Shown here piece by piece: positions 4,688 through 62,201 of a stretch of DNA of 64,000 nucleotides. Each line of letters opens with the position of its first letter. The first letter of the stretch is position 1. The DNA comes from Bacteroidia bacterium. Its GTDB lineage: Bacteria > Bacteroidota > Bacteroidia > Bacteroidales > VadinHA17. Both the position numbers and the translations under genes were made by a program. The stretch covers positions 9,356 to 73,355 of the forward strand of contig JAPLEB010000105.1 in the NCBI GenBank assembly GCA_026391555.1, given 5' to 3'. The notes under the pieces are model-generated. The model saw only the letters and a program-made list of their open reading frames with translations, was not told where the DNA came from and did no database searches.

Positions 4688-4802
4688 GCACTAATTACCC
4701 TACTGATTATTAACCTAAACTTATGACAAAATATAAGATATCTCTGAAAATAATTATTTTGAATAATTACCTAACCAACATAAGTACTGGTAAAGCAGGA
4801 GT

Positions 4803-5228
4803 TTAATTCTGTCCTTGTCCTTGTCCCTGTCCTTGTCCTTGTGGCCTTCCTGCTGCCCTTCTTTCAGCTTCTTTTGTTTTGAAGAGCTCAAAGTCTTTGT
4901 CTCCAAGAACAACTTTTAATTCTTTATCCCTGGCTACAGTAACTTCGGTCATTTTAGCTCTCATAGACTGCCTGTCTCCGGCTGCCATAAGCTTCTGCAT
5001 TTCTTCTGATGATTGCTTAGCATACTTCAGAACAACGTCATATACTTTCTTCTGAGTAGCTTCATTAAGTTTAAGGTCTGTTTTCATCCATTCTACCTGA
5101 GTTTTTGCAGACTCTTCAGGTGATCTTTGTACTCTCTGACCGCCTTGCTTCTGCCCCTGTTGTGCAGATAATGAACTCATTAGCATCGCCAAAACGATTA
5201 CTGATAAAAATCTCATTCCTGTTTTCAT
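4803..5228 (-). CDS. Small secreted protein, copy 1 (DUF4890/Spy-LTXXQ-like periplasmic protein suspected), with a C-terminal (GQ)n tail
   Basis: Start trimmed to MKTGMRFLSVIVLAMLMSSLSAQQ (signal peptide). The helical, charged body is ...AKTQVEWMKTDLKLNEATQKKVYDVVLKYAKQ.... The tail PQGQGQGQGQGQN is encoded by a CCTTGT hexamer run. Confidence 0.6.
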   Translation of the reverse strand: MKTGMRFLSVIVLAMLMSSLSAQQGQKQGGQRVQRSPEESAKTQVEWMKTDLKLNEATQKKVYDVVLKYAKQSSEEMQKLMAAGDRQSMRAKMTEVTVARDKELKVVLGDKDFELFKTKEAERRAAGRPQGQGQGQGQGQN

Positions 5229-5738
5229 AATATACGTTTTTAAAAGTTTAATTAATATAACGAATAGACAACATGAAACATGTAAATATTCCAAAAAAAA
5301 TAATTTTTAGATTTTGTTAACTTATCGCTATTAATATTTTAACATGAGTAAGATGCAAAACCGGAGGCTGTCTTAAATTTTGTTGTTATTCCGTCAACCT
5401 GCCGATATGAAGCTCTTTTTGTTTCTGGGTCATATCTTTGTATTTTTCCTGACTTCCGCATTTTTCTCCGCTCTAAAATTCAGATTCTGATAATGAGTGT
5501 GTTATAAAGGTTTTTTTAGTATTATTGGTGTCTCAGTGCGGAAGTCAGGAGTCTGGTTATGCCTTTTCCTTTCTTTCTGATTCTAAAAAAGAAAACGGGC
5601 AGCAGAATAAACTGCCACCCGCACTATATTACCCTACTCTGATTATTAACCTAAACTTCTGACCAAAGACAAAATATCTCTGAAAATAATTATTTTGAAT
5701 AATTACCTAAACAACATCAGTCCGGGTAACGTGAGAAT

Positions 5739-6161
5739 TTAATTTTTCCCTGATTTTTTCCCTTGTTTTTGTCCTTGTCCTTGTGGCTTTTCTGCCTCCT
5801 TTTTTTCAGCTTCTTTTGTTTTGAAGAGTTCATAGTCTTTATCTCCAAGAACAACTTTTAGTTCTTTATCCCTGGCTGCACCAATTTCGGTCATCTTAGC
5901 TCTTATGGCTTTCTTGTCTCCGGCTGCCGCAAGCTTCTGCATTTCCTCTTTTGATTGATTAGCATACTTCAGAACAACGTCATATACTTTCTTCTGTGTA
6001 GCTTCATTAAGTTTAAGGTCTGTTTTCATCCATTCTACCTGAGTTTTTGCAATCTCTTCAGGTGTTCTTTGAGCTCTCTGGCCCTTCGCCTGTTGTGCAG
6101 ATAGTGAACTCATTAGCATTGTTAAAACGACTACTGATAATAGTCTCATTCCTGTTTTCAT
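5739..6161 (-). CDS. Small secreted protein, copy 2 (paralog of 4803..5228), with a lysine-rich tail
   Basis: Closely similar to copy 1 over the aligned body by eye. Signal peptide MKTGMRLLSVVVLTMLMSSLSAQQ; the tail diverges to PQGQGQKQGKKSGKN. Confidence 0.6.
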   Translation of the reverse strand: MKTGMRLLSVVVLTMLMSSLSAQQAKGQRAQRTPEEIAKTQVEWMKTDLKLNEATQKKVYDVVLKYANQSKEEMQKLAAAGDKKAIRAKMTEIGAARDKELKVVLGDKDYELFKTKEAEKKEAEKPQGQGQKQGKKSGKN

Positions 6162-6864
6162 AATATAAATTTTAAAAAGTTTAATTAATATAATGAATAG
6201 ACAACTTGAAACATATAAATATTCCAATAAAAATTATTTTTAGATTTTTTTAACTTATCGCTATTGATATTTTAACATGAGCAAGATGCAAAACAGGAGG
6301 CTGTCATAAATTTTGTTGTTATTCCGGCAACCTGCCGATATGAAGCTTTTTTTATTCCTTGGTCATATCTGTAAATGCCGGTATATTGTGCATCTCATTT
6401 ACTCCTTTTTGGTAATTATTTACCTGTATTTATTCGGTAATGAAATTATTTCCCTTAAAGGTAGTACATAATTCTTTAAAGACGGACTGTTGATTCTTTT
6501 TAGCTGTGGAAATAAAGCCTTTAATTCTGGCATATCCTAAAAAACAAGTTTTTACAGCTAAAGTTATACAACACGAATGGCCCAAATTGTTGATATTCTT
6601 GCATTTTGGAATTTTATCCCCGCATGAAGGGCTTATTTGAATAAAAGTTTTTTGGTTCGCGCGAATAGTTAAAATGCCGGGAACATAAAATCACTGGAAA
6701 ACAGCATCTTATTAACAACTGCAACGCATATTTGTTAACAACACCTGGATTTTGAGGTTTATACTCAATTTAGAGCCGGGTGATTAGTAATATTCTTATA
6801 TTAGCAGCTAAACAATTACAAAAGTTCTATTTTAACGTTTTTATTTTCAACAGATTTTAATGCC

Positions 6865-12154: not shown

Positions 12155-12214
12155 TTACAGATTACAGATTACAGATTACAGATTACAGATTACAGATTAC
12201 TACCTACTACCTGC
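12155..12214. repeat. Heptamer tandem repeat: (TTACAGA/GATTACA) x6 followed by tacctac/tacctgc units
   Basis: Read directly: ttacaga x6 from 12155 to 12196, then ttac tacctac tacctgc. It lies in the 88-nt spacer between the Gfo/Idh/MocA stop (12225) and the gntP-like start (12136). Confidence 0.95.
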
Positions 12215-17497: not shown

Positions 17498-18221
17498 TCA
17501 TGTTAAAAAGTTCTTATCAATGTAGTTTTGAAACTTACTTTTATACTGATCGCTAACCGGAATATAAACTTTCCCGTCGAAAATAATCCGGTTCCTTTCT
17601 ATAACCGAAATCTTAGAAAGGTTAACTATATAAGATCTATGATCTATGCACTCTCATGAACCTGTCAGATGGTAATATCTCCTCAACAGACTTCATGCTT
17701 AACAGCGTCATTACCGGCTTAGCGCTGGTAAGGTGAATTCTGATATACTCACTCATTCCCTCAATATACTTTATATCGTCAAAGTTGATTCTGAGTAATT
17801 TATAATCAGATTTGATAAATAGAAAATCTTTATTGCTCCTGACTTCATCTGACTTTTGATGATGCGAATCAAACCATGTTTTAACCTTATTGGCTGACTT
17901 TAAGAAATCAACATAGCTGATGGGTTTAAGCAGGTAGTCGATGGCATCAACCCTGAAACCTTCTAATGCATATTCGCTGTAAGCCGTGACAAATACTATC
18001 TTAGGAGGATTTTCAAGAGTTTTAACGAAATCCATTCCGTTAAGATCGGGCATATTTATATCAACATACATGAGGTCAACCGGGATATTTTCTAAAATCT
18101 CAATTGCCTGAAAGGCGCTTTCACACTGCCCAACCAACTCCAGAAAAGGTGTTTTCTTAACGTAATCAGCTATTTGCCTCAAAGCCAAAGGTTCGTCATC
18201 TATTGCTATGCATCTGATCAT
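17498..18221 (-). pseudogene. LytTR-family response regulator disrupted by a 7-bp tandem duplication (gatctat gatctat at 17634-17647)
   Basis: The track ORF stops after FMRVHRS. Removing one 7-bp copy restores FMRVHRSYIVNLSKISVIERNRIIFDGKVYIPVSDQYKSKFQNYIDKNFLT* (238 aa), collinear with the intact paralog at 19732..20448. Confidence 0.85.
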
Positions 18222-18388
18222 AATGGAATCGATAGGGTTTCACTACGTTTATAAGATAAAGAACCGGCAGTCTTTATTTCTGCGGAAAAGCAGAAACAAA
18301 TATAAAAAATTATTTCTGACCGACTAAAAGTATGAGATTCTTCGCTTCGCTCAGAATGACAAGCGTTTAGTGAGTTAGAGAGTCGAGG

Positions 18389-18421
18389 GGGGTGGTTGGA
18401 GGCACAGCCTCCAACCACCCC
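18389..18421. repeat. GC-rich perfect hairpin (14-15-bp stem) within a GC-rich intergenic island
   Basis: ggggtggttggagg-cacag-cctccaaccacccc, preceded by gattcttcgcttcgctcagaatgacaag. This island explains the spurious 66-aa track ORF 18218..18418. Confidence 0.75.
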
Positions 18422-19731: not shown

Positions 19732-20448
19732 TTATCCCAAGGAATGCGAATGGATGTATTTTTGAAATATTTCTTTATATTGTTCACTTACAGGGATATA
19801 TACTTTACCCTCAAAAATTATCCTTGAATGGTCAATTGTGGTGATTTTCTCAAGGTTGACAATATATGAACGGTGTACTCTCATGAATTTATCTGAAGGT
19901 AGTTGTTCTTCAAGAACACGCAAACTTATAAGTGGCAAAAGAGATTTACCGTTTAGAAGATGAATGCGCACATATTCACGCATCCCTTCAATATAAATAA
20001 TGTCTTCCAGGCTGATACGGACCATTTTATACCCCGATTTTACAAACAAATATTCCCTGTCGCCCCCCTTTTTTGTTGCCTGTGGAAGAACATTTTCAAA
20101 ATAATTTCTGGCTTTATTAGCTGACTTTAAGAAATCACCATAACCGATTGGCTTAAGCAGGTAGTCGATGGCATCAACCCTGAAACCTTCTAATGCATAT
20201 TCGCTGTAAGCCGTGACAAATACTATCTTAGGAGGATTTTCAAGAGTTTTAACGAAATCCATTCCGTTTAGATCGGGCATATTAATATCAACAAACATCA
20301 GGTCAACCGGGATATTCTTTAAAACATCAATTGCCTTTAAGGCACTTTCACATTGTCCGGACAACTCGAGAAAAGGTGTTTTTTTAATGTAACCAATAAT
20401 CTGCCTCAAAGCAAGCGGCTCGTCATCTATTGCAATGCATCTGATCAT
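19732..20448 (-). CDS. LytTR-family response regulator (REC + LytTR DNA-binding domain)
   Basis: REC: IAIDDEPLAL...DLMFVDINMPDLNG...VFVTAY...LLKP. LytTR: ...IIYIEGMREYVRIHL...FMRVHRSYIVNL.... Its start overlaps the kinase stop by 4 nt. Confidence 0.9.
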   Translation of the reverse strand: MIRCIAIDDEPLALRQIIGYIKKTPFLELSGQCESALKAIDVLKNIPVDLMFVDINMPDLNGMDFVKTLENPPKIVFVTAYSEYALEGFRVDAIDYLLKPIGYGDFLKSANKARNYFENVLPQATKKGGDREYLFVKSGYKMVRISLEDIIYIEGMREYVRIHLLNGKSLLPLISLRVLEEQLPSDKFMRVHRSYIVNLEKITTIDHSRIIFEGKVYIPVSEQYKEIFQKYIHSHSLG

Positions 20449-25710: not shown

Positions 25711-25722
25711 TAATTGGGGGAT

Positions 25723-25785
25723 GTTTCGTGTTTCGTGTTTCGGGTTTCGATTTGACTTTTATCTTTTTACATTTGTCTTTTGTCT
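25723..25785. repeat. Nine-unit heptamer-periodic tract filling an intercistronic gap
   Basis: gtttcgt gtttcgt gtttcgg gtttcga tttgact tttatct ttttaca tttgtct tttgtct, read in phase. It lies between the decarboxylase stop (25786) and the UT/M23 start (25710). Confidence 0.9.
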
Positions 25786-27162
25786 TCAACCCAGGTACTC
25801 CGGTATTACCTCATTAGCTGATATATTTTCAAGTGTTTCAGCACGCCTGATTACATGAACCTCCCTGTTCTGATCTATTAAAACAACATTTGGCCGGGTG
25901 GTTATAAACTGCAGCCACTGGGTGTTATTGTAAGCTCCTGTTCTGGTTATTACAAACCTGTCGCCACGTTTCAATGCAGGGAACATAAGCGAAGGTCTGA
26001 TAACATCTATATTCATACAAAGCGGACCAAAGATTGTTGTCTCCTCAACCAAACCAGAATGAATGCTAACGGGGTGAATTTTATGATCGTACCAGAATGA
26101 TGTAAAAAGCAGATTCACACCAACATCAACAATGGTTGCTCTGTGACCATCCGAAAGATGTTTATTTGCAAGCACAGAACCAGCAATGTACCCTGCGTTA
26201 TCTATTAGCGCACGTCCGGTTTCCAGTATTAATGTCGGCAGTTTATCGGGTTTAATCTGAGAATTGATAATTGCTGATGTTATAGCCTCTGCGTATTCAT
26301 CGAACGAAGGAGTTGTATCCTCACCCGAAAGGTAGGCTCCCCTCAGAGTATTCTTCGATGCAAATCCTCCGCCCATATCGATATATGAAATATGATGATC
26401 AAATTTCTGAGCTATATTGTAAGTCAGATCAGCAAGCTTTGTAGCCGCGACCCGGTAAGCATCAACACTCATTATATAGGTACCTATATGAGTATGTAAA
26501 CCCATTAGTTTTAGTTTTGGGTTCATCATAATGCGATTTATTGCATCCCATGCTTCACCGTTCTCGTAGTTTAATCCGAACCTGTCCCATTTGGGATAAA
26601 TTCCAATATCCATATTTACCCTGACGGCTACCCTGGCCTCAATATTTTTTCTCTGACAGACATCCGATAACATGAACAGCTCATCTATATGATCGATGTG
26701 AATGAACGATCCATTCCTTACGGCTTTCTCCAGATCATTAATACTTTTACCCGGTCCGTTAAAAATAATATTTTCTCCTTTTACACCATTCCCGATCGCT
26801 TTATCGTACTCAAAACCCGATACAACCTCGGCCCACGATCCTTCCTGATGGAAAATCCGGCAGATGGAATCTAAATAATTGGTTTTGTAACTCCATGCCA
26901 TCTGGACTTTTTGATATCTGAGGTTGAATGCTCTTTTGATATCCTCCATCCCTTTTCTAATTGTCCGTTCAGAAAAAACATAAAGAGGTGATCCATATTT
27001 GTCAAGGAGATCATCTACCTTAACTCCGTCTATAAAAGGCAATGGGGCAACTACCGTTCCAACCCCATGCTTCGATGGAACACCCGGATTTAAACGGGTT
27101 ATTGTTGGTCTTTCGAACATTAATTTTGACATGATATTGTGTTTATTATTTTCGTTCTGCAA
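25786..27162 (-). CDS. Fold-type III PLP-dependent decarboxylase (Orn/DAP/Arg decarboxylase family, DAP-decarboxylase-like)
   Basis: PLP-lysine motif WSYKTNY, glycine loop IDMGGGF, active-site GPLCMNID, and HTHIGT. Confidence 0.85.
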   Translation of the reverse strand: MQNENNKHNIMSKLMFERPTITRLNPGVPSKHGVGTVVAPLPFIDGVKVDDLLDKYGSPLYVFSERTIRKGMEDIKRAFNLRYQKVQMAWSYKTNYLDSICRIFHQEGSWAEVVSGFEYDKAIGNGVKGENIIFNGPGKSINDLEKAVRNGSFIHIDHIDELFMLSDVCQRKNIEARVAVRVNMDIGIYPKWDRFGLNYENGEAWDAINRIMMNPKLKLMGLHTHIGTYIMSVDAYRVAATKLADLTYNIAQKFDHHISYIDMGGGFASKNTLRGAYLSGEDTTPSFDEYAEAITSAIINSQIKPDKLPTLILETGRALIDNAGYIAGSVLANKHLSDGHRATIVDVGVNLLFTSFWYDHKIHPVSIHSGLVEETTIFGPLCMNIDVIRPSLMFPALKRGDRFVITRTGAYNNTQWLQFITTRPNVVLIDQNREVHVIRRAETLENISANEVIPEYLG

Positions 27163-34134: not shown

Positions 34135-34185
34135 ATAAAAGATAAAAGACAAAAGTAAAAAGTTGAAAAAGTCTAAAGTTTAGAG
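34135..34185. repeat. Heptamer-periodic A-rich tract, the reverse complement of the CTTTTAT-type units
   Basis: G recurs at 34141, 34148, 34155, 34162, 34171 and 34178 (spacing 7,7,7,9,7): ataaaag ataaaag acaaaag taaaaag ttgaaaaag tctaaag. Confidence 0.7.
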
Positions 34186-34389
34186 TTCTTTTATGGGAGA
34201 GCCTGTAACGATTTATCAGGTTTATATGATCGTACCCTCAGATTCTGATAATGCATCCTGATTTTTATCATAGAAAAGATGATTTAATAGTTGTAATTTC
34301 GATGATTGCATTTTTTTTTCCCCTGAAAAGATTCTGATGATCAGATTATTAAAATTCCTAAAAAGTATCACTCTATAAACTTTTAAATT

Positions 34390-36495: not shown

Positions 36496-38643
36496 TCAGG
36501 AACTGCCCTGAAGCGGAGTTGAATCCTTCATTGATAACTGAATACGTTTCCTTTCAATATCTACTGCCAGGACTTTTACCATAACATGCTGATGGAGTTT
36601 CACAACAGTTGAGGGGTCTGATATGTAGGTTTTGCTCATATTTGAAATATGTACCAGTCCATCCTGTTTAATACCGATATCAACAAAAGCACCAAATTTT
36701 GTAATATTTGTTACAATTCCGGGAACAATCATTCCCTGGATAAGATCCTCCATAGTATGAACATCAGCAAACCGGAACTCTTTTATTTTTGAACGTGGAT
36801 CGCGGCCGGGTTTAGCCAGCTCTTCCATTAAATCTTTAAGTGTCGGCAGCCCGGTTACCGGAGTAATATAACGGTCGAGTTTAATCTCTTTTCGCTTGTT
36901 ATCATCTGTAATAAGTTCCTTAACATCACATCCCATATCTTTCGACATTTGCTCTACAACATGGTAACTCTCCGGATGCACTGCGCTGGCGTCGAGTGGA
37001 TTCTCAGCATTTCGTATCCGGAGGAACCCTGCACTTTGCTCAAAAGCTTTTGCTCCCATCCGCTTTACCTTCAGAAGTTCTTCACGTGACTTGAATGGTC
37101 CGTTTTCTGCACGGTAATCAACAATGTTCTGTGCAAGCTGTGGTCCGAGACCAGAAACATAAGTCAACAGATGACTGCTTGAAGTATTCACCTCAACGCC
37201 AACTGCATTAACACAACTCATAACAACATCATCCAGCGATTTTTGCAGTTTCTGCTGATCAACATCATGCTGATACTGACCCACCCCTATTGATTTAGGA
37301 TCGATCTTAACCAACTCAGCCAACGGGTCCATAAGTCTTCGTCCTATCGATACAGCACCCCGGACGGTTACATCATAATCGGGAAATTCATCACGTGCAG
37401 CTTTTGAAGCAGAATATATTGAAGCCCCGGCCTCGCTGACAACAAAAACCTGAATATCATTCTCAAACTTGATCCATTTCATAAAATCTTCGGTCTCGCG
37501 GCTTGCAGTTCCATTACCGATAGCAATAGCCTCAATCTTGTAAGCATTGACAAGTGAAAGTATCTTTTTTATCGACATTGCAGTTTCATTCTGCGGGGGA
37601 TGAGGATAAATTGTCTCATTATGAATAAGATTCCCCTGCCTGTCGAGACAAACAACCTTACACCCCGACCTGAAACCAGGGTCAATAGCCAGAACAGTTT
37701 TTTCGCCTAATGGTGATCCAAGAAGAAGCTGGCGAAGGTTTTCAGCAAATACCATAATTGCCTCAATATCAGCCTTTCCCTTGGTAATATTTCTGAACTC
37801 TGTTTCCATTGAAGATGAAAGAAGTCTTTTCCAACTATCTTTTACGGCAACAGCAACGATGCCAGATGAAGCGTTCCGCTCCTTAATGAAAATATGGTTT
37901 AGTATATCAAGTGCATTCTCTTCAACAGGTTCCACCGACAGTCTCAGGAAACCCTCATCCTCTCCCCTCCTCATTGCAAGCAGCCTGTGCGACGGACACT
38001 TCTTAAGAGGCTCTGACCAATCATAATAATCGCTGTATTTAATACCTTCAGCCTCTTTCCCTTTTACAACCCTTGAGTAAATAACTGCCTCTTTTTCAAA
38101 AAGATATCTCAGTTGTTTTCTTACATTTTCGTCCTCATTTATCCATTCGGCGATAATGTCAGATGCACCGGCCAGAGCATCTTCAACAGTTGTAACATCG
38201 TCATTGAGATACTCCTCAGCTTTAAGAGACAGATCATTCTCCTTCTGATCCAAAATGATAACCGCGAGCGGCTCAAGCCCTTTTTCCCTGGCAATCGTTG
38301 CCCGTGTTCTGCGTTTTGGCCTGTAAGGCAGATAGATATCCTCAAGCTCAGCCATTGTTACTGCAGCTTCAATTTTTTGCCTGAGCTCCGGAGTCATCTT
38401 TTCCTGTTCCTCAATAGACTTTAATACACTTTCCCTGCGGGCATCAAGCTCTTTGAGCCGATCGTATTCCTCCTTGATTTGCATCAGTTTGACCTCATCA
38501 AGACTGCCGGTCATCTCTTTCCTGTATCTGCTAATAAATGGAATGGTAGCTCCGCCATCCATCAGCCTGATTGTGTTTTCGACCTGCCATTCGTGGAGTC
38601 CAAGCTTTTTCGCAACAATTTCAATATGTTTATTCGCACCCAT
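36496..38643 (-). CDS. tex: Tex-like transcription accessory protein (YqgF/RuvC-like + HhH + S1 domains)
   Basis: N-terminal WQVENTIRLMDGGATIPFISRYRKE, LAIDPGFRSGCK, and C-terminal S1 GMIVPGIVTNITKFGAFVDIG...DGLVHIS. Confidence 0.9.
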   Translation of the reverse strand: MGANKHIEIVAKKLGLHEWQVENTIRLMDGGATIPFISRYRKEMTGSLDEVKLMQIKEEYDRLKELDARRESVLKSIEEQEKMTPELRQKIEAAVTMAELEDIYLPYRPKRRTRATIAREKGLEPLAVIILDQKENDLSLKAEEYLNDDVTTVEDALAGASDIIAEWINEDENVRKQLRYLFEKEAVIYSRVVKGKEAEGIKYSDYYDWSEPLKKCPSHRLLAMRRGEDEGFLRLSVEPVEENALDILNHIFIKERNASSGIVAVAVKDSWKRLLSSSMETEFRNITKGKADIEAIMVFAENLRQLLLGSPLGEKTVLAIDPGFRSGCKVVCLDRQGNLIHNETIYPHPPQNETAMSIKKILSLVNAYKIEAIAIGNGTASRETEDFMKWIKFENDIQVFVVSEAGASIYSASKAARDEFPDYDVTVRGAVSIGRRLMDPLAELVKIDPKSIGVGQYQHDVDQQKLQKSLDDVVMSCVNAVGVEVNTSSSHLLTYVSGLGPQLAQNIVDYRAENGPFKSREELLKVKRMGAKAFEQSAGFLRIRNAENPLDASAVHPESYHVVEQMSKDMGCDVKELITDDNKRKEIKLDRYITPVTGLPTLKDLMEELAKPGRDPRSKIKEFRFADVHTMEDLIQGMIVPGIVTNITKFGAFVDIGIKQDGLVHISNMSKTYISDPSTVVKLHQHVMVKVLAVDIERKRIQLSMKDSTPLQGSS

Positions 38644-38670
38644 CGTTAAATGATTTCTACATATTCAAAA

Positions 38671-38723
38671 ACCCACCCCTAACCCCCCGCCGAAGCGGGG
38701 CAGGCTCTCCAGGGAGGGGAACT
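38671..38723. repeat. GC-rich hairpin repeat element, copy A
   Basis: acccacccctaaccccccgccgaagcggggcaggctctccagggaggggaact. Inner hairpin ccccgc-cgaa-gcgggg. About 49 of 53 positions are identical to 58960-59012. Confidence 0.85.
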
Positions 38724-38757
38724 GGTTTTGCCTTTGTACCTTTGCACTATTGTGCCT

Positions 38758-39939
38758 TTATTCAACATAAATAACCAAACCTTTCAGATACTCGCTCTCC
38801 GGGTGATAAATATTTACCGGATGGTCAGGCGGCTGACTCATCTGGTGTAAGATTCTGACACTGCGACCCGTATTGGCAGCTGCAGCAAAAACCGATTTTC
38901 TGAAGTTCTCTTTTGTCACCACCTGCGAACACGAGAATGTAAAAATAATACCACCTGGTTTAATTTGCTCAATTGCCTTAATATTAAGCCTTTTATATCC
39001 CTGAAGGGCATTTGCAAGAACATTATTATGCTTTGCAAATGCGGGTGGGTCGAGTATTATCAGATCGTACTTATCTTTAATATGATTCAGATAATCAAAT
39101 GCATCAACCTGAAATGATTCATGCCGGGGATCATCTCCATAATTAAGTTTAATATTTTCATTAGCCAGTTCAATAGCCGGGAAAGAACTGTCAACTGTAT
39201 GAACTAAAGCTGCATTTTTCATAGCATAGACTGAAAATGCGCCTGTATAACCAAACATGTTGAGGACACTCTTTCCTTCAGTAAATCTTTCAAGCAGTTT
39301 TCTGTTCTCCCTCTGATCGATGAAGAATCCGGTTTTCTGACCTGTAGTCCAGTCAATTTTAAATTTATAACCGTATTCCGTGACAATCACAGGGTCAGAA
39401 TTTCCATACAGAAATTCATTTACACCTGTTATACCGGACATGTGCGGAATAGTTGTTTCGCTCTTATCGTAAACAGCAATAAGCTGACCTTTCATTAGTT
39501 CAACCAGGATAGCTGCAATTTCCCCGCGTATCCTGTAAAACCCGATTGAATGCATCTGGATCACAGCAACTCCGTTATAGAAATCAACAATAAGACCTGG
39601 TAATCCATCGCCTTCAGCATGAATAAGCCTGAACACATTAATCTGAGGATTATCTATAATACCCAGTGATTTTCTGTAATTAATTGCCTTTTTTATTTTA
39701 TCCCTGAAAAAATCAATGTCCGGAGTTACCTGCACAAATGAGAGTATTCGTACTGCAATGGAACTGGGTTGATAATGTCCGACAGCGAGGAAAGAATCTT
39801 TATTATCATAGACATCCACCAGGTCGCCTTCTGCAGGATTACCATAGATTTTTTTTATAGCTCCCGAAAATATCCACGGGTGATACCTGCGGAGTGACTG
39901 CTCTTTTCCTGATTTAAGGACAATTTTTACTCGCTCCAC
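38758..39939 (-). CDS. rlmI: Class I SAM-dependent rRNA (cytosine-C5) methyltransferase, RlmI-like (PUA + MTase)
   Basis: KSGKEQSLRRYHPWIFSGAI (PUA-type N-terminus), NMFGYTGAFSVYA and IILDPPAFAK. Confidence 0.75.
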   Translation of the reverse strand: MERVKIVLKSGKEQSLRRYHPWIFSGAIKKIYGNPAEGDLVDVYDNKDSFLAVGHYQPSSIAVRILSFVQVTPDIDFFRDKIKKAINYRKSLGIIDNPQINVFRLIHAEGDGLPGLIVDFYNGVAVIQMHSIGFYRIRGEIAAILVELMKGQLIAVYDKSETTIPHMSGITGVNEFLYGNSDPVIVTEYGYKFKIDWTTGQKTGFFIDQRENRKLLERFTEGKSVLNMFGYTGAFSVYAMKNAALVHTVDSSFPAIELANENIKLNYGDDPRHESFQVDAFDYLNHIKDKYDLIILDPPAFAKHNNVLANALQGYKRLNIKAIEQIKPGGIIFTFSCSQVVTKENFRKSVFAAAANTGRSVRILHQMSQPPDHPVNIYHPESEYLKGLVIYVE

Positions 39940-48783: not shown

Positions 48784-48801
48784 TCTGAGAACTTGGAAAA
48801 A

Positions 48802-48871
48802 GGCGACAGGCGACAGGAATATTGGAAAGAGACAGGGTTTAATTTCTTCCTAATGCCTGTCGCCTGTTGCC
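48802..48871. repeat. Inverted heptamer-repeat hairpin (ggcgacaggcgacagg ... cctgtcgcctgttgcc) between convergent genes
   Basis: The arms at 48802-48817 and 48856-48871 are complementary with one mismatch, with a 38-nt loop. Each arm consists of two 7-nt units. Confidence 0.7.
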
Positions 48872-48872
48872 T

Positions 48873-49226: not shown

Positions 49227-49324
49227 AATGCAGCGTATTAAATAATGAAAGAAACCACATACAATTCCACATTGTAATATTTTTACAATTTAATAAATAT
49301 AAATCACTTATGCCGTCCCTGATG

Positions 49325-49359
49325 CCTGTCGCCCGTCGCCTGTAGCCTTTAATTTTAGT
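49325..49359. repeat. Heptamer tract: cctgtcg cccgtcg cctgtag cctttaa ttttagt
   Basis: Read in phase. Its first 19 nt are the inverted complement of 48802-48817 on the other side of the four-helix-bundle gene. Confidence 0.7.
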
Positions 49360-50992: not shown

Positions 50993-51015
50993 AAATTAAC
51001 AGATATTATTAATCT

Positions 51016-51047
51016 GAGGCTGGCTTTCCTGAGTCAGCCTCTTTTTT
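51016..51047 (+). terminator. Rho-independent terminator of the FadL-like gene
   Basis: gaggctg-gctttcctgagt-cagcctc followed by tttttt. Confidence 0.7.
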
Positions 51048-51093
51048 ACCCCTATCCCGATAGCTATCGGGACTCCCTGGGGGGTTTGGGGGT
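51048..51093. repeat. GC-rich island with the 16-bp palindrome cccgatagctatcggg and C/G-run arms
   Basis: acccctatcccgatagctatcgggactccctggggggtttgggggt. The style resembles the 38671/58960 element in inverse orientation, but the sequence is not alignable throughout. Confidence 0.5.
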
Positions 51094-57948: not shown

Positions 57949-58011
57949 CCTGTTGCCTGTCGCCTGTCTTTCTACTTTTATCTTTTTACTTTTATCTTTT
58001 ATCTTTAAAAT
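57949..58011. repeat. Nine-unit heptamer-periodic tract between pstS and pstC
   Basis: cctgttg cctgtcg cctgtct ttctact tttatct ttttact tttatct tttatct ttaaaat, read in phase. Confidence 0.9.
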
Positions 58012-58079: not shown

Positions 58080-58910
58080 TTATTTATATGGGAAGTATCC
58101 TACTTCTGTAGCGACCATCTGTCCCTCCTGACTAAGTATCCAGTCGATGTACTTTTTGTTTTCGCCTGTTGGCCTGTTTCTCAGGTACATATACAGGTAG
58201 CGGGTTATCGGATATTCACCTTTCCCGATTGATTCTGCTGTAGGAAGAAATGCCGGGCCGTTTGTATCATTTTTTACTTTGGCATGTTTTACGCCTACTG
58301 CATAAGCTGCTCCACCATAACCGATACCATTTACATCTTTTTTTACTGCATTTACAACAGCTGCTGTTCCGGGAAGTGTCTGAACAGTTGCAGCATAATC
58401 GCCCTTAACTACCTCATCGTGAAAATAAACATAGGTACCCGAGCTGTTTTCACGGCCATAAACTGTAATCGGAGCATCATTCCCACCAACATCTTTCCAA
58501 TTTTTTACCTTAGCCTGATAAATATCACTTAACTGTTTGAGAGTAAGTTCCTGAACTTTATTAGCTTCGTTCAGAAAAATAGTTATCCCGTCTTTTGCAC
58601 AAGGGATCTGTACGCCAAGTGTATTGTAACGCGCCTTAAGCTTTTCTATTTCGGTCTGTTTCATGGGACGGCTTGAGTTGCAGATATCAGTAGTCCCGTT
58701 AATCAGCGCTGTTATGCCAACACCTGAACCACCTCCGGTAACCTGGATTGATGCTGACGGATTACTCTTCATATACAGTTCAGCCCATTTCTGAGCGAGG
58801 ATAACCATTGTATCAGAACCTTTCACGGTAATTTTTTGCTGTGAAAATCCTGTTGCTGAAACCATTAGAACTGTTATCAGCATTATTGTGAAAATTTTGT
58901 TGTTTTTCAT
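58080..58910 (-). CDS. pstS: Phosphate-binding protein PstS
   Basis: Signal peptide, then ITVKGSDTMVILAQKWAE...VTGGGSGVGI..L..GT.DI..SSR... (PBP-like_2 pattern), at the head of pstCAB. Confidence 0.9.
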   Translation of the reverse strand: MKNNKIFTIMLITVLMVSATGFSQQKITVKGSDTMVILAQKWAELYMKSNPSASIQVTGGGSGVGITALINGTTDICNSSRPMKQTEIEKLKARYNTLGVQIPCAKDGITIFLNEANKVQELTLKQLSDIYQAKVKNWKDVGGNDAPITVYGRENSSGTYVYFHDEVVKGDYAATVQTLPGTAAVVNAVKKDVNGIGYGGAAYAVGVKHAKVKNDTNGPAFLPTAESIGKGEYPITRYLYMYLRNRPTGENKKYIDWILSQEGQMVATEVGYFPYK

Positions 58911-58959
58911 TTTATTTATTTATTTAAAATTAAACCTAAAACTTCTGTCATTGTTATTA

Positions 58960-59012
58960 ACCCACCCCTCGCCCCCCGCCGAAGCGGGGCAGGCTCTCCC
59001 AGGAGGGGAACT
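58960..59012. repeat. GC-rich hairpin repeat element, copy B
   Basis: acccacccctcgccccccgccgaagcggggcaggctctcccaggaggggaact. Followed by the heptamer units gcctttt gcctttt gtcttga accttga actttta (59021-59055). Confidence 0.85.
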
Positions 59013-59052
59013 TTGGATTCGCCTTTTGCCTTTTGTCTTGAACCTTGAACTT

Positions 59053-60276
59053 TTAGAATTTTGCCTGAATTCTTACTCCAAGAACATTATCCTTCTTTTC
59101 GGTTGAGTTTGATGCATTGATTTCGTTCTTAGGCATTTCGTAGTTCAGTGAGATCCTGATATTGTCGTTAAGATAATGTTGCAATGAAACAGTCCAGGTT
59201 GTGTAATAAATATTATTTCCTGCAGCATCACCGCTTAATTTGGTATTAGGATCATAATAATCATACCGTGCAATAAACTGATCTTTGGGCCCGATATTCT
59301 TTATAAAATATAGATAATATCCTGAAAAATTATTAAATAAATTCGGACTTGCTTTCATTTGAGCCATAGTAGATGTTCCGGCAATTGTACTTGCAGTTGA
59401 ATTTATTCCTGCTATATATTCGGCCTTTATGGCCATTCCGCCAAGAACATCTGCAAATATCTGTACTTCACCACCTACCCAATTTTTATCAAGATAACTC
59501 CAAACTTTAACACTATCTGCAGTCCCATCGCTATTACTAATATATGGGTTAGTTTTTGCTAAGTTCCCACCAAAATAACCATTTGCTCCAAAGTCAATTC
59601 CTATACCTGCATCGGGAAGTTTAATTGAATATACAATACGTCCCATGAGGTCTTTCTTGGAATCAACATCTTTTGCCTGCGCTGCTGTGAAATTGCCATT
59701 CATTGCCATCAACTGAACTTTTAATGGAATTGTGGATCCTACATACTCAAGCTTAACGCCTATTTCCCTTTCGCCAGGATATATCGTCCTGATAACCCTT
59801 GAACGCTCCAGAACTTCCCTTTGACTTGAAGAATATTCAACTTCATAATCAGGCCTGTTAAACTGACCTGTCCATAAAGTGAAATCCTTTAGTTTTGGAA
59901 TATTAACCACTGCATAAGCATCTTTCAAAACAAGGTTTCCTGTACTGAAATCGGGCTGTAAAACGAATTTAACTCCATCAAGAGCCTCATAAGTAAACTT
60001 CACTCTTGCCCTTCTGATATAAAATGTATTGTTATATCCATTTGATTTTTCCAGATCCTTACCATAACTCTCCCATTGTGCCTGGATGTAACCTGATACT
60101 TTTATTTTGTTAAGTTTACCGAGGTCGGCTTCATTAACTAAAACTCTTTCATCCAGTGCATTAAGCCTTCCTTCATGTTTCTCGATTACTTCCTTAAGTG
60201 AATCGGGATTTTGTTTTTGTGAGTACCCATAGACTGACACCATCATAAAAATTGTAATTGCTAAAAGTTTCTTCAT
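59053..60276 (-). CDS. Porin, phosphate-selective OprO/OprP-like
   Basis: Signal peptide MKKLLAITIFMMVSVYGYSQ (an alternative start exists at 60306). Has a coiled N-terminal segment, then GYIQAQWESYG...FYIRRARVKFTYEA, and ends ...GVRIQAKF. Located directly upstream of pstS. Confidence 0.7.
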   Translation of the reverse strand: MKKLLAITIFMMVSVYGYSQKQNPDSLKEVIEKHEGRLNALDERVLVNEADLGKLNKIKVSGYIQAQWESYGKDLEKSNGYNNTFYIRRARVKFTYEALDGVKFVLQPDFSTGNLVLKDAYAVVNIPKLKDFTLWTGQFNRPDYEVEYSSSQREVLERSRVIRTIYPGEREIGVKLEYVGSTIPLKVQLMAMNGNFTAAQAKDVDSKKDLMGRIVYSIKLPDAGIGIDFGANGYFGGNLAKTNPYISNSDGTADSVKVWSYLDKNWVGGEVQIFADVLGGMAIKAEYIAGINSTASTIAGTSTMAQMKASPNLFNNFSGYYLYFIKNIGPKDQFIARYDYYDPNTKLSGDAAGNNIYYTTWTVSLQHYLNDNIRISLNYEMPKNEINASNSTEKKDNVLGVRIQAKF

Positions 60277-60428
60277 TTCTAATACTTTAAGTTTGACTTT
60301 TTTCATGATACAAAAATCAGCGATTATTATTACAAACAGGTTGCAAAGAGGTTAAGAAAATATTACAAAAGAGACAAACAAGGTAAAAACTTGCAGGATA
60401 ATCAGTTATGAGAATCGGAATAATAAAA

Positions 60429-62102: not shown

Positions 62103-62201
62103 TGTTTCTAAATAATAATGATCCGTAAAAGTACTAAAGAAATGTTGAAATGTTGAAGAAGGTTAAGGGTTTTAGAATCGGGTGTGTTAAAGAATTTAAG
62201 A

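Follow-up and report, generated by a model that had tools for sequence, protein, structure and literature searches.

In a stretch of 64,000 nucleotides from a Bacteroidia bacterium of the order Bacteroidales (assembly GCA_026391555.1, contig JAPLEB010000105.1, positions 9,356 to 73,355 of the forward strand; the whole stretch is hereafter called the window), we analyzed two nearly identical GC-rich sequences, copies A and B, that lie downstream of an rlmI-like gene and of a porin gene, respectively. Each is a non-coding, solo member of a family of dispersed DNA repeats. The element is a Bacteroidales member of the BoxC class of repeats (also described as potential intrastrand triplex, PIT, or triplex-motif elements), with the same architecture, a different sequence subfamily and a nested hairpin. 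The explanation that best accounts for the observations as a whole, to which we give a probability of about 0.55, is that of a mobile BoxC-type repeat whose inverted copies bracket nuclease genes of the DUF559 family in many bacteria and which may spread through a partnership with these genes, similar to that of repetitive extragenic palindromes (REP) with REP-associated tyrosine transposases (RAYT); the mechanism of the partnership itself we consider less likely than not. The nested module, the sense-strand bias, the company of heptamer arrays and the bracketing of DUF559 genes by the repeat all appear to be new, the last being the most important.

Copy A occupies positions 38671-38723 and copy B positions 58960-59012, both as long-form elements on the minus strand (nhmmer E = 1.6e-15 and 5.2e-14, respectively), and on the gene-sense strand copy A reads AGTTCCCCTCCCTGGAGAGCCTGCCCCGCTTCGGCGGGGGGTTAGGGGTGGGT. 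The copies are identical at 49 of 53 positions (alternatively, 93% over 54 nt), and no match to the 53-mer was obtained in 100 shuffles, in agreement with a sequence-only reading of the window that had described the pair as far beyond chance. The four differences fall in the linker (TT vs CG) and the first loop (CT vs TG); the second loop of copy B is CGA. As that reading had also noted and the gene map confirms, the copies have a common orientation and sit in spacers separating co-directional minus-strand genes. Both contain the 16-nt hairpin CCCCGC-CGAA-GCGGGG without a single difference (38685-38700 and 58974-58989). They are the top GC stretches of the window, which has 39% GC overall, and a profile search, using a profile built from relatives, identified no third copy within the 64 kb. 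The plus-strand open reading frames (ORFs) 38571-38774 and 58888-59106, which translate the element (NPPLTPRRSGAGSPGRG and THPSPPAEAGQALPGGE), run antisense into the neighboring real genes and are therefore spurious, as had been supposed. The folding energy of the copies is no better than that of composition-matched shuffles (z = -0.1 to -0.8), and because these scores are near 0, structural support was drawn from the comparison between copies and not from thermodynamics.

BoxC, PIT and triplex-motif repeats have been recognized since the 1990s and are present in hundreds of genomes, and we know of no function, partner protein or means of spread established for them. On the gene-sense strand, the basic unit of the element consists of a pyrimidine block (CCCCTCC), a short loop, a purine block (GGAGGGG), a loop of 2-3 nt (often TTA), and a mirror block (GGGGTGG) followed by GT. 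Copies were parsed by a block-logic script that requires a pyrimidine block followed by the purine block pairing with it in Watson-Crick fashion and then by a mirror purine block (stems of 6-15 nt, loops of 1-6 nt) and seeks G*G-C triads plus T*A-T or A*A-T triads. The short forms of four types and the Escherichia coli BoxC parse with 6-7 triads; among the loci and contigs compared with the window, which are labeled by L-numbers, those with short forms that parse free of mismatches are L142, L193, L041 and L200, and the short form in L072 has 1 mismatch. The pyrimidine, purine and mirror blocks are CCCCTCC, GGAGGGG and GGGGTGG in the type 1 short form; CCCCCTT, AAGGGGG and GGGGGAT in type 2; CCCCCTT, AAGGGGG and GGGGGTT in the L200 variant; CCCCCCT, AGGGGGG and GGGTGGT in the L072 variant; and CCCTCT, AGAGGG and GGGTGA in the E. 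coli copy. Since all three blocks co-vary between types, which is good evidence, the three-block relation appears to be a conserved property.

The E. coli repeat has been re-described as PIT elements or TM_ECO, with the consensus CCCTCNCCC N3-6 GGGNGAGGG N3 GGGNGAGGG, a mirror purine block able to occupy the groove as third strand, a second loop that is TTA or CCG, and 23 copies without strand bias in the genome (Holder et al. 2015, PMC4666352, citing Bergler 1992 and Hoyne/Maher 2000). The element has in common with these repeats the pyrimidine arm, purine arm and mirror block, the short loops (the second often TTA), the G/C-rich composition, the strictly intergenic location in multiple copies, the occurrence as inverted pairs and the variability of loci between close relatives. 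It differs in its blocks (CCCCTCC/GGAGGGG/GGGGTGG vs CCCTCNCCC/GGGNGAGGG/GGGNGAGGG), in the interruption of the purine arm of the window copies by a 19-nt nested hairpin, in a strong sense-strand bias in Bacteroidales, and in its co-occurrence there with heptamer arrays. The E. coli consensus has 0 matches in the window; it matches E. coli itself next to ycjD and four metagenome loci. Bacteroidetes, endonucleases and ycjD are all unmentioned in PMC4666352.

No parse into contiguous blocks is obtained for copies A and B as they stand, but after removal of the 19-nt AGCCTGCCCCGCTTCGGCG both parse with 7 triads and 0 mismatches. The window copies are thus best taken as interrupted derivatives ('long form') of the triplex motif. 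Because of this parse after excision, the outer cccct/agggg complementarity pointed out by the sequence-only reading represents the original element, and the stem-loop that it described is not the core but a module nested in the purine arm; the third, mirror block that assigns the element to the BoxC/PIT class (PMC4666352) had been missed.

The module consists of AGCCTG and the hairpin CCCCGC-UUCG-GCG. We tabulated by script 46 distinct long forms and obtained 15 stem/loop versions, with the loops TTCG, ATAA, GATA, GACA, and TTTT, the stems CCACGC/GCGTGG, CCCCGAC/GTCGGGG, CCCCGAG/CTCGGGG, and CCCCGGG/CCCGGGG, and one group with a U-A pair and tandem G-A pairs. Double (compensatory) changes, for which a check had been suggested, were found at pairs 3, 4, 6, and 7 of the inner stem, and the module thus evolves as a hairpin. 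As T-G and G-A pairs work on the sense strand only, it is the G-rich strand that folds, be it in RNA or in single-stranded DNA. RNAalifold applied to a MAFFT alignment misaligned the variable inner stems, and stem covariation was counted by script. The pairing of GCCUGCCCC with the mirror block that it proposed was rejected, since it depends on three G-U pairs and is not maintained in type 2 copies. The small dispersed repeats (SDRs) of Nostoc and other cyanobacteria are reportedly hairpin modules of ~20-27 nt with compensatory changes that lie within other repeats as well as in arrays of tandem heptamers. Their small nested hairpin and heptamer setting resemble the 19-nt insert; the sequences and the phylum differ, and the likeness is one of description and not of direct sequence comparison.

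An exact scan with the 23-nt core GAGCCTGCCCCGCTTCGGCGGGG, using one genome per species, gave 71 occurrences at 68 loci in ~17 assemblies, nearly all of them Bacteroidales metagenome-assembled genomes (MAGs), with up to 10 occurrences per MAG; the family is thus not limited to the two window copies. In the type 1 setting, which is that of the window, the core ends in GGGGTGGGT, and in the type 2 setting it has the arms CCCCCTT/AAGGGGG and the end GGGGGATGT. It also occurs within two longer repeat families (types 3 and 4), and short forms without the core are present at the same loci (for example, TCCCCTCCCTGGAGGGGCTGGGGGTGGGT). In a metagenome scan with only the outer blocks fixed we found at least 120 loci; among the matches listed, the 29-nt short form was the commonest version and extended to high-GC contigs, where it frequently makes up inverted pairs or tandem arrays. 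No known RNA family accounts for the element: none of 4227 Rfam models reached its gathering threshold in the window or on the element in 18 loci, and a permissive search returned sub-threshold chance matches only (E = 0.5-8). A viral contig scan and a plasmid collection gave no match.

The longer families have features of their own. The type 3 core (L003, L004, L047, L064, L065) runs into DUF559 genes or gene fragments of the opposite strand at their 5' end, and the type 4 core (L001, L009, L014, L016, L025, L029, L037, L040, L048, L050, L053, L056) is associated with a conserved TTAGGTTGACGGCTATG; neither repeat has an Rfam match. Another GC-rich repeat family, TTAGCGAGGAGCCAGACTGCAGGGGAGAYTTTGTGGTGGGG, is located in the same kind of spacers (L012, L032, L039, L165, L194).

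DUF559 (PF04480) is among the larger bacterial domains of unknown function, with 17,582 representative clusters at E <= 0.001. When the ORFs located up to 1.2 kb from any copy of the element were clustered across loci, it was the only small family that recurred near copies in unrelated contexts. Its fold is of the Vsr-like PD-(D/E)XK kind, with PDB 3hrl as a relative, and the E..D...H catalytic motif is preserved. In all 11 DUF559 genes viewed on both sides (L078, L081, L085, L102, L142, L177, L196, L198, L199, L072, and L200), the forward copy or copies end 8-26 nt before the start codon and the reverse copy or copies overlap or follow the stop codon, so that the mirror block faces the gene from both sides. 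The bracketing repeats are of type 1 in nine cases, including one on a contig with 68% GC, and are own cognate variants in L072 and L200; in L102 and L177 they are long-form copies. Because the reverse copy overlaps the reading frame, DUF559 proteins end in translated repeat (PTPxPSxEG[N/S]). By a strict pattern, this tail is present in 84 of the 120 closest homologues (~100 by eye) and in 37 of 119 diverse representatives, against 0/120 and 5/118 in the controls, and some tails (PTPDPPINRGRLSEEGN) translate the long form.

The order cysS-DUF559-ispG is conserved in at least five Bacteroidales contigs, and the DUF559 gene therefore looks resident rather than hopping. NCBI names the family of the flanked gene after E. 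coli YcjD. In E. coli K-12, a BoxC-like hairpin lies over the stop codon of ycjD and a consensus copy follows 168 nt downstream, an adjacency that by our own estimate has a chance of roughly 1%, given 23 copies in the genome. A survey has reported that DUF559 genes are enriched among regions flanked by inverted repeats (PMC9881135), and our literature search, which was incomplete in coverage, returned no paper linking DUF559, PF04480, or COG2852 to this repeat. Downstream of ycjD, the K-12 fabI-ycjD spacer (L201, 5041-5407) additionally contains a second, degenerate version of the final ~40 nt of that gene, then BoxC fragments and a full BoxC copy. On the reverse strand of L084 (~800-1300), a DUF559 domain within a long ORF leads in frame into two CCCCCTCTCAAGAGGGGG repeats, after which comes a methyltransferase-like region.

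The comparison with relatives relies on the genes flanking the two copies, all of which are on the minus strand. Copy A separates the gene of an RlmI-like S-adenosylmethionine-dependent methyltransferase (38758-39939; Pfam PUA_3 and Methyltrans_SAM) from tex (36496-38643; Pfam Tex domains, 100% identical to MCX6326979.1), with the tex ATG 27 nt downstream of the element. Copy B separates a phosphate-selective porin O/P gene (59053-60306; Pfam Porin_O_P) from pstS (58080-58910; Pfam PBP_like_2, 100% identical to MCX6326997.1), with the pstS ATG 49 nt downstream. The spacer between rlmI and tex has 114 nt in the window vs 6, 7, 63, and 74 nt in four relatives (Tex 90-92% identical), and the element is missing from all four. 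The 63-nt spacer contains an octamer array without the GC element, that of 74 nt is plain AT-rich sequence, and in L191 and L192 the entire upstream spacer of copy A is missing. At the porin-pstS site, the closest relative (L193, PstS 92% identical) keeps a homologous heptamer array and lacks the element, and in two other relatives the spacer is just 53-54 nt of AT-rich DNA. Compared to L193, the window has gained 66 nt there (12 nt plus the element), and no duplication is definable. Conversely, a short-form copy is present in the pstS-pstC spacer of L193, where the window has arrays alone.

At some orthologous sites, a copy is retained between species whose flanking genes are only ~75% identical. 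One such site is occupied by type 1 in one species and type 2 in the other, each being the predominant type of its own genome. The empty orthologous sites and this match between site type and genome indicate that copies are gained, lost, and homogenized. Copies A and B are accordingly recent gains, in spacers where heptamer arrays were already present or were acquired afterwards; they are lineage-specific passengers in operon spacers and not regulators common to relatives. In one of the compared contigs (L190, 1336-2426), the rlmI-like gene is split into two ORFs of 94 and 266 aa, which may reflect a frameshift or an assembly error.

Between co-directional genes in low-GC contigs, the ratio of sense to antisense copies is 58:5, and 38 of 44 long forms have a co-oriented upstream gene, while high-GC contigs have no orientation bias. 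A typical copy is placed 8-140 nt past a stop codon and 10-60 nt ahead of the next ATG. No intrinsic terminator was called on the sense (minus) strand at copy A or B, the consensus has no U-tract, and the 3' flank varies across copies (TTTTTGAA, TAATAAC, AAAAAAA, and others); canonical terminators with a hairpin and T-tract occur elsewhere in the genome. Copies A and B are not canonical terminators, and the copy A site, where the genes are 6-7 nt apart in two relatives, also speaks against the proposal that they might be. One canonical terminator at 51015-51092 of the window is followed by ACCCCTATCCCGATAGCTATCGGGACTCCCTGGGGGGTTTGGGGG, a GC-rich hairpin with a G-rich end block that may be a distant relative of the element.

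In the partnership that we propose, the DUF559 nuclease would recognize the folded structure formed by the arm and the mirror block and nick or cut there, and repair or recombination at the cut sites would then spread, homogenize, and delete copies, analogous to the action of RAYT with REP and its doublet form, REPIN. Such turnover would also account for the reported hypervariability of BoxC loci. Like REP and REPIN, the element is a short GC-rich palindromic intergenic repeat that occurs as singlets, inverted doublets, and arrays; it flanks one resident gene with inverted copies, its variants track the variants of that gene, and the repeat type follows the genome and not the site. The flanked gene, however, encodes a Vsr-like PD-(D/E)XK protein of the DUF559 family and not a Y1 transposase of the HUH type: no family but DUF559 recurs near copies. 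The element is palindromic, but its consensus lacks GTAG/CGTC and carries a 9-nt G-rich mirror block instead. The suggestion of a REP- or MITE-like dispersed element (MITE, miniature inverted-repeat transposable element) is supported in kind, given the many Bacteroidales copies, the empty orthologous sites, the compensatory changes of the inner stem and the lack of an Rfam match; the REP signature, a RAYT partner, and MITE features are lacking. A wider and more tentative proposal, which we consider less likely than not, is that BoxC-type repeats and DUF559 genes form a cross-phylum pair of cis and trans components, a second REP/RAYT-like system built on a Vsr-like nuclease in which nicking drives turnover; the 19-nt hairpin of the window copies would then be a smaller rider element, like the cyanobacterial SDRs.

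Several points weigh against the proposed partnership. The adjacency of DUF559 genes and repeats may reflect targeting of the repeat by the gene and not its mobilization; no DUF559 gene lies within the 64-kb window; and since the compared loci were selected for carrying the repeat, the estimate of DUF559 enrichment is rough. Neither a target-site duplication nor a precise insertion boundary is definable at the porin-pstS site, and the long form breaks the contiguous triplex motif in the window copies, so that triplex-dependent recognition may not survive there. The ycjD arrangement is partial, with no BoxC copy upstream, and the E. coli motif has been described without in vivo triplex formation, mobile-element association, or strand bias (PMC4666352). 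If DUF559 were instead a selfish gene of the homing-endonuclease type that inserts into inverted doublets, it would be a parasite and not the mobilizer of the repeat, which would spread otherwise or be an old DNA motif. The Vsr-like/EDxHD group to which DUF559 belongs does include homing endonucleases (PMC3424549, PMC3239194), inverted doublets with facing mirror blocks exist without a gene (L005/L031 and metagenome contigs), and many DUF559 genes are on very short contigs. We nevertheless regard this as unlikely, as the conserved cysS-DUF559-ispG synteny suggests vertical inheritance, distinct DUF559 clades have their own repeat variants, and solo copies far exceed doublets in Bacteroidales. 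A classical MITE, that is an internally deleted insertion sequence (IS) moved by a conventional transposase through its terminal inverted repeats, would also be small, intergenic, multi-copy, and polymorphic between relatives. However, the unit has just 29-54 nt, most copies are single asymmetric units and not paired ends, the filled and empty porin-pstS sites reveal no target-site duplication, and DUF559 is the only recurrent neighbor, with no transposase or IS-like gene among the recurrent ones, so that we consider this origin very improbable.

The remaining alternative is that the element is kept for an RNA function, as an intercistronic stabilizer or terminator hairpin selected at each site. 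The strong sense orientation in Bacteroidales, the stable GC hairpin with a UUCG loop, the placement between stop and start codons, the T-G and G-A pairs that suit the transcribed strand, and the retention of a copy at an orthologous site between genes with 75% identity are all compatible with this explanation. It is opposed by the consensus without a U-tract and the lack of a sense-strand terminator call in a genome that has canonical terminators elsewhere, by the empty orthologous sites of close relatives (including the two with rlmI and tex 6-7 nt apart), by the unbiased orientation in high-GC contigs, and by a folding energy at the level of shuffled sequences. In addition, earlier work cited in PMC4666352 found the E. 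coli relatives to be without promoter or terminator activity, and a selected RNA role leaves the mirror block and the DUF559 flanking unexplained; it is, in our estimate, even less probable than a homing gene. An intercistronic hairpin role is possible as a side effect. Under the DUF559 partnership, transcription of rlmI-tex and of porin-pstS would read through the window copies, leaving them at most a passive role as RNA hairpins, and the sense orientation would be favored in Bacteroidales by selection on the transcript. An antisense copy would expose a long C-rich unpaired tract, similar to a Rho-loading site, in the operon RNA, where a sense copy would form a G-rich hairpin; this Rho explanation of the orientation bias is our conjecture and counts among the weaknesses of the partnership.

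If the partnership is true, it would provide a function for the very large DUF559 family and a cause for the 'genomic instability' of BoxC. The repeat itself accounts for spurious ORFs over elements, for the unusual C-termini, rich in Pro and Gly, of 'endonuclease domain-containing proteins', and for some assembly breaks.

The periodic T-rich tail that had been described next to both copies is, when read on the sense strand, a purine-rich array with a period of 7-8. Tandem Repeats Finder (TRF) detects these arrays weakly, with a period of 8 x 3.6 copies (66% matches, score 30) at 38731-38759 and a period of 7 x 2.7 copies (score 31) at 59021-59039. The arrays are thus real, but they do not belong to the element: a tail as part of the element was rejected, since homologous arrays occur without it at orthologous sites (L189, L193). 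Among the element flanks in low-GC contigs, an array is present upstream in 43/131 and downstream in 35/131, against a background of 4/131 shuffled flanks and 69/1000 random 70-mers. The period 7 predominates beside elements, and most upstream arrays (30 of 43) have a sense strand rich in purines. One orthologous site has retained the GG phase of its array with a different unit sequence. On this comparative evidence, the arrays are a separate feature of these genomes, independent of the element.

Heptamer repeats (TAACTGA and the short tandemly repeated repetitive sequences, STRR, of cyanobacteria) are known from Beggiatoaceae, Cyanobacteria, and some Bacteroidetes (PMC4679880). The tails, and only these, resemble them as head-to-tail intergenic arrays of ~7-nt units (period 7-8) that are gene-oriented, often lie just upstream of start codons, and vary in unit sequence from site to site. 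In contrast, the arrays of the window are limited to 2.7-6.6 units, their sense strand is rich in purines, and their cores are GG or AAAG and not TAACTGA. Upstream of the DUF559 gene in L196 (1170-1500), there are three successive array-then-element modules, and array and element can therefore duplicate together. Short arrays with a period of 6-8 are present in many spacers of the window (12155-12200, 25722-25786, 34135-34160, 48801-48817, 49324-49348, 57949-58006, and 62139-62157), mostly purine-rich on the sense strand of neighboring genes and with unit sequences that vary by site. Those at 12155-12200 (TTACAGA x 6.6), 25722-25786, and 57949-58006 are stronger by TRF than the arrays beside copies A and B. 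Between convergent genes at 48801-48872, plus-strand AGGCGAC units face GCCTGTCGCCTGTTGCC and form a long inverted repeat of heptamer arrays.

On the minus strand, the element is laid out as AGTTCCCCTCC-CTG-GAG, the module AGCCTG CCCCGC TTCG GCG, and GGGGG-TTA-GGGGTGGGT. In copy A, the upstream spacer (38724-38757) carries the octamer-like array CAAAGGTA CAAAGGCA AAACC directly 3' of the rlmI stop codon, and ~12 nt of it, GGCAAAACCAG, are similar in copy B by alignment. The spacer is followed by the pyrimidine arm TCCCCTCC (38713-38720, from the parse after insert removal), the first loop with the GGAG start of the purine arm (38706-38712), and the nested insert (38685-38707), which comprises GAGCCTG (38701-38707) and the inner hairpin CCCCGC-UUCG-GCGGGG (38685-38700). 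The second loop, TTA (38680-38682), corresponds to the loop called 'type A' in E. coli BoxC/TM_ECO, and the mirror block GGGGTGGGT occupies 38671-38679. In copy B, the nested insert is at 58974-58996 (GAGCCTG and the inner hairpin, 58974-58989), and the upstream spacer (59013-59052) contains the heptamer arrays GTTCAAG x2 and CAAAAGG x2. An 11-nt match to GGGAGAGCCTG at 34195-34205 and the 9-mer GGGGGATGT at 25716-25724 are weak and at the level of chance. The window contains no tRNA or tmRNA genes.

Other repeats of the window are of different kinds. A perfect GC palindrome at ~18340-18421 has 15-bp arms (GGGGTGGTTGGAGGC-ACA-GCCTCCAACCACCCC) and is preceded by GATTCTTCGCTTCGCTCAGAATGAC, a member of a hairpin family (GATTGCTTC-hairpin-TCGCAATGAC) that is also found in L006, L017, L059, and L062. 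The region 4700-6400 consists of two tandem segments of ~940 nt that are 81-89% identical, each with a small ORF, and includes a TGTCCT x 5.5 array at 4810-4842. Finally, the segments 17869-18168 and 20096-20395 form a 300-nt pair with 89% identity, 2.2 kb apart.

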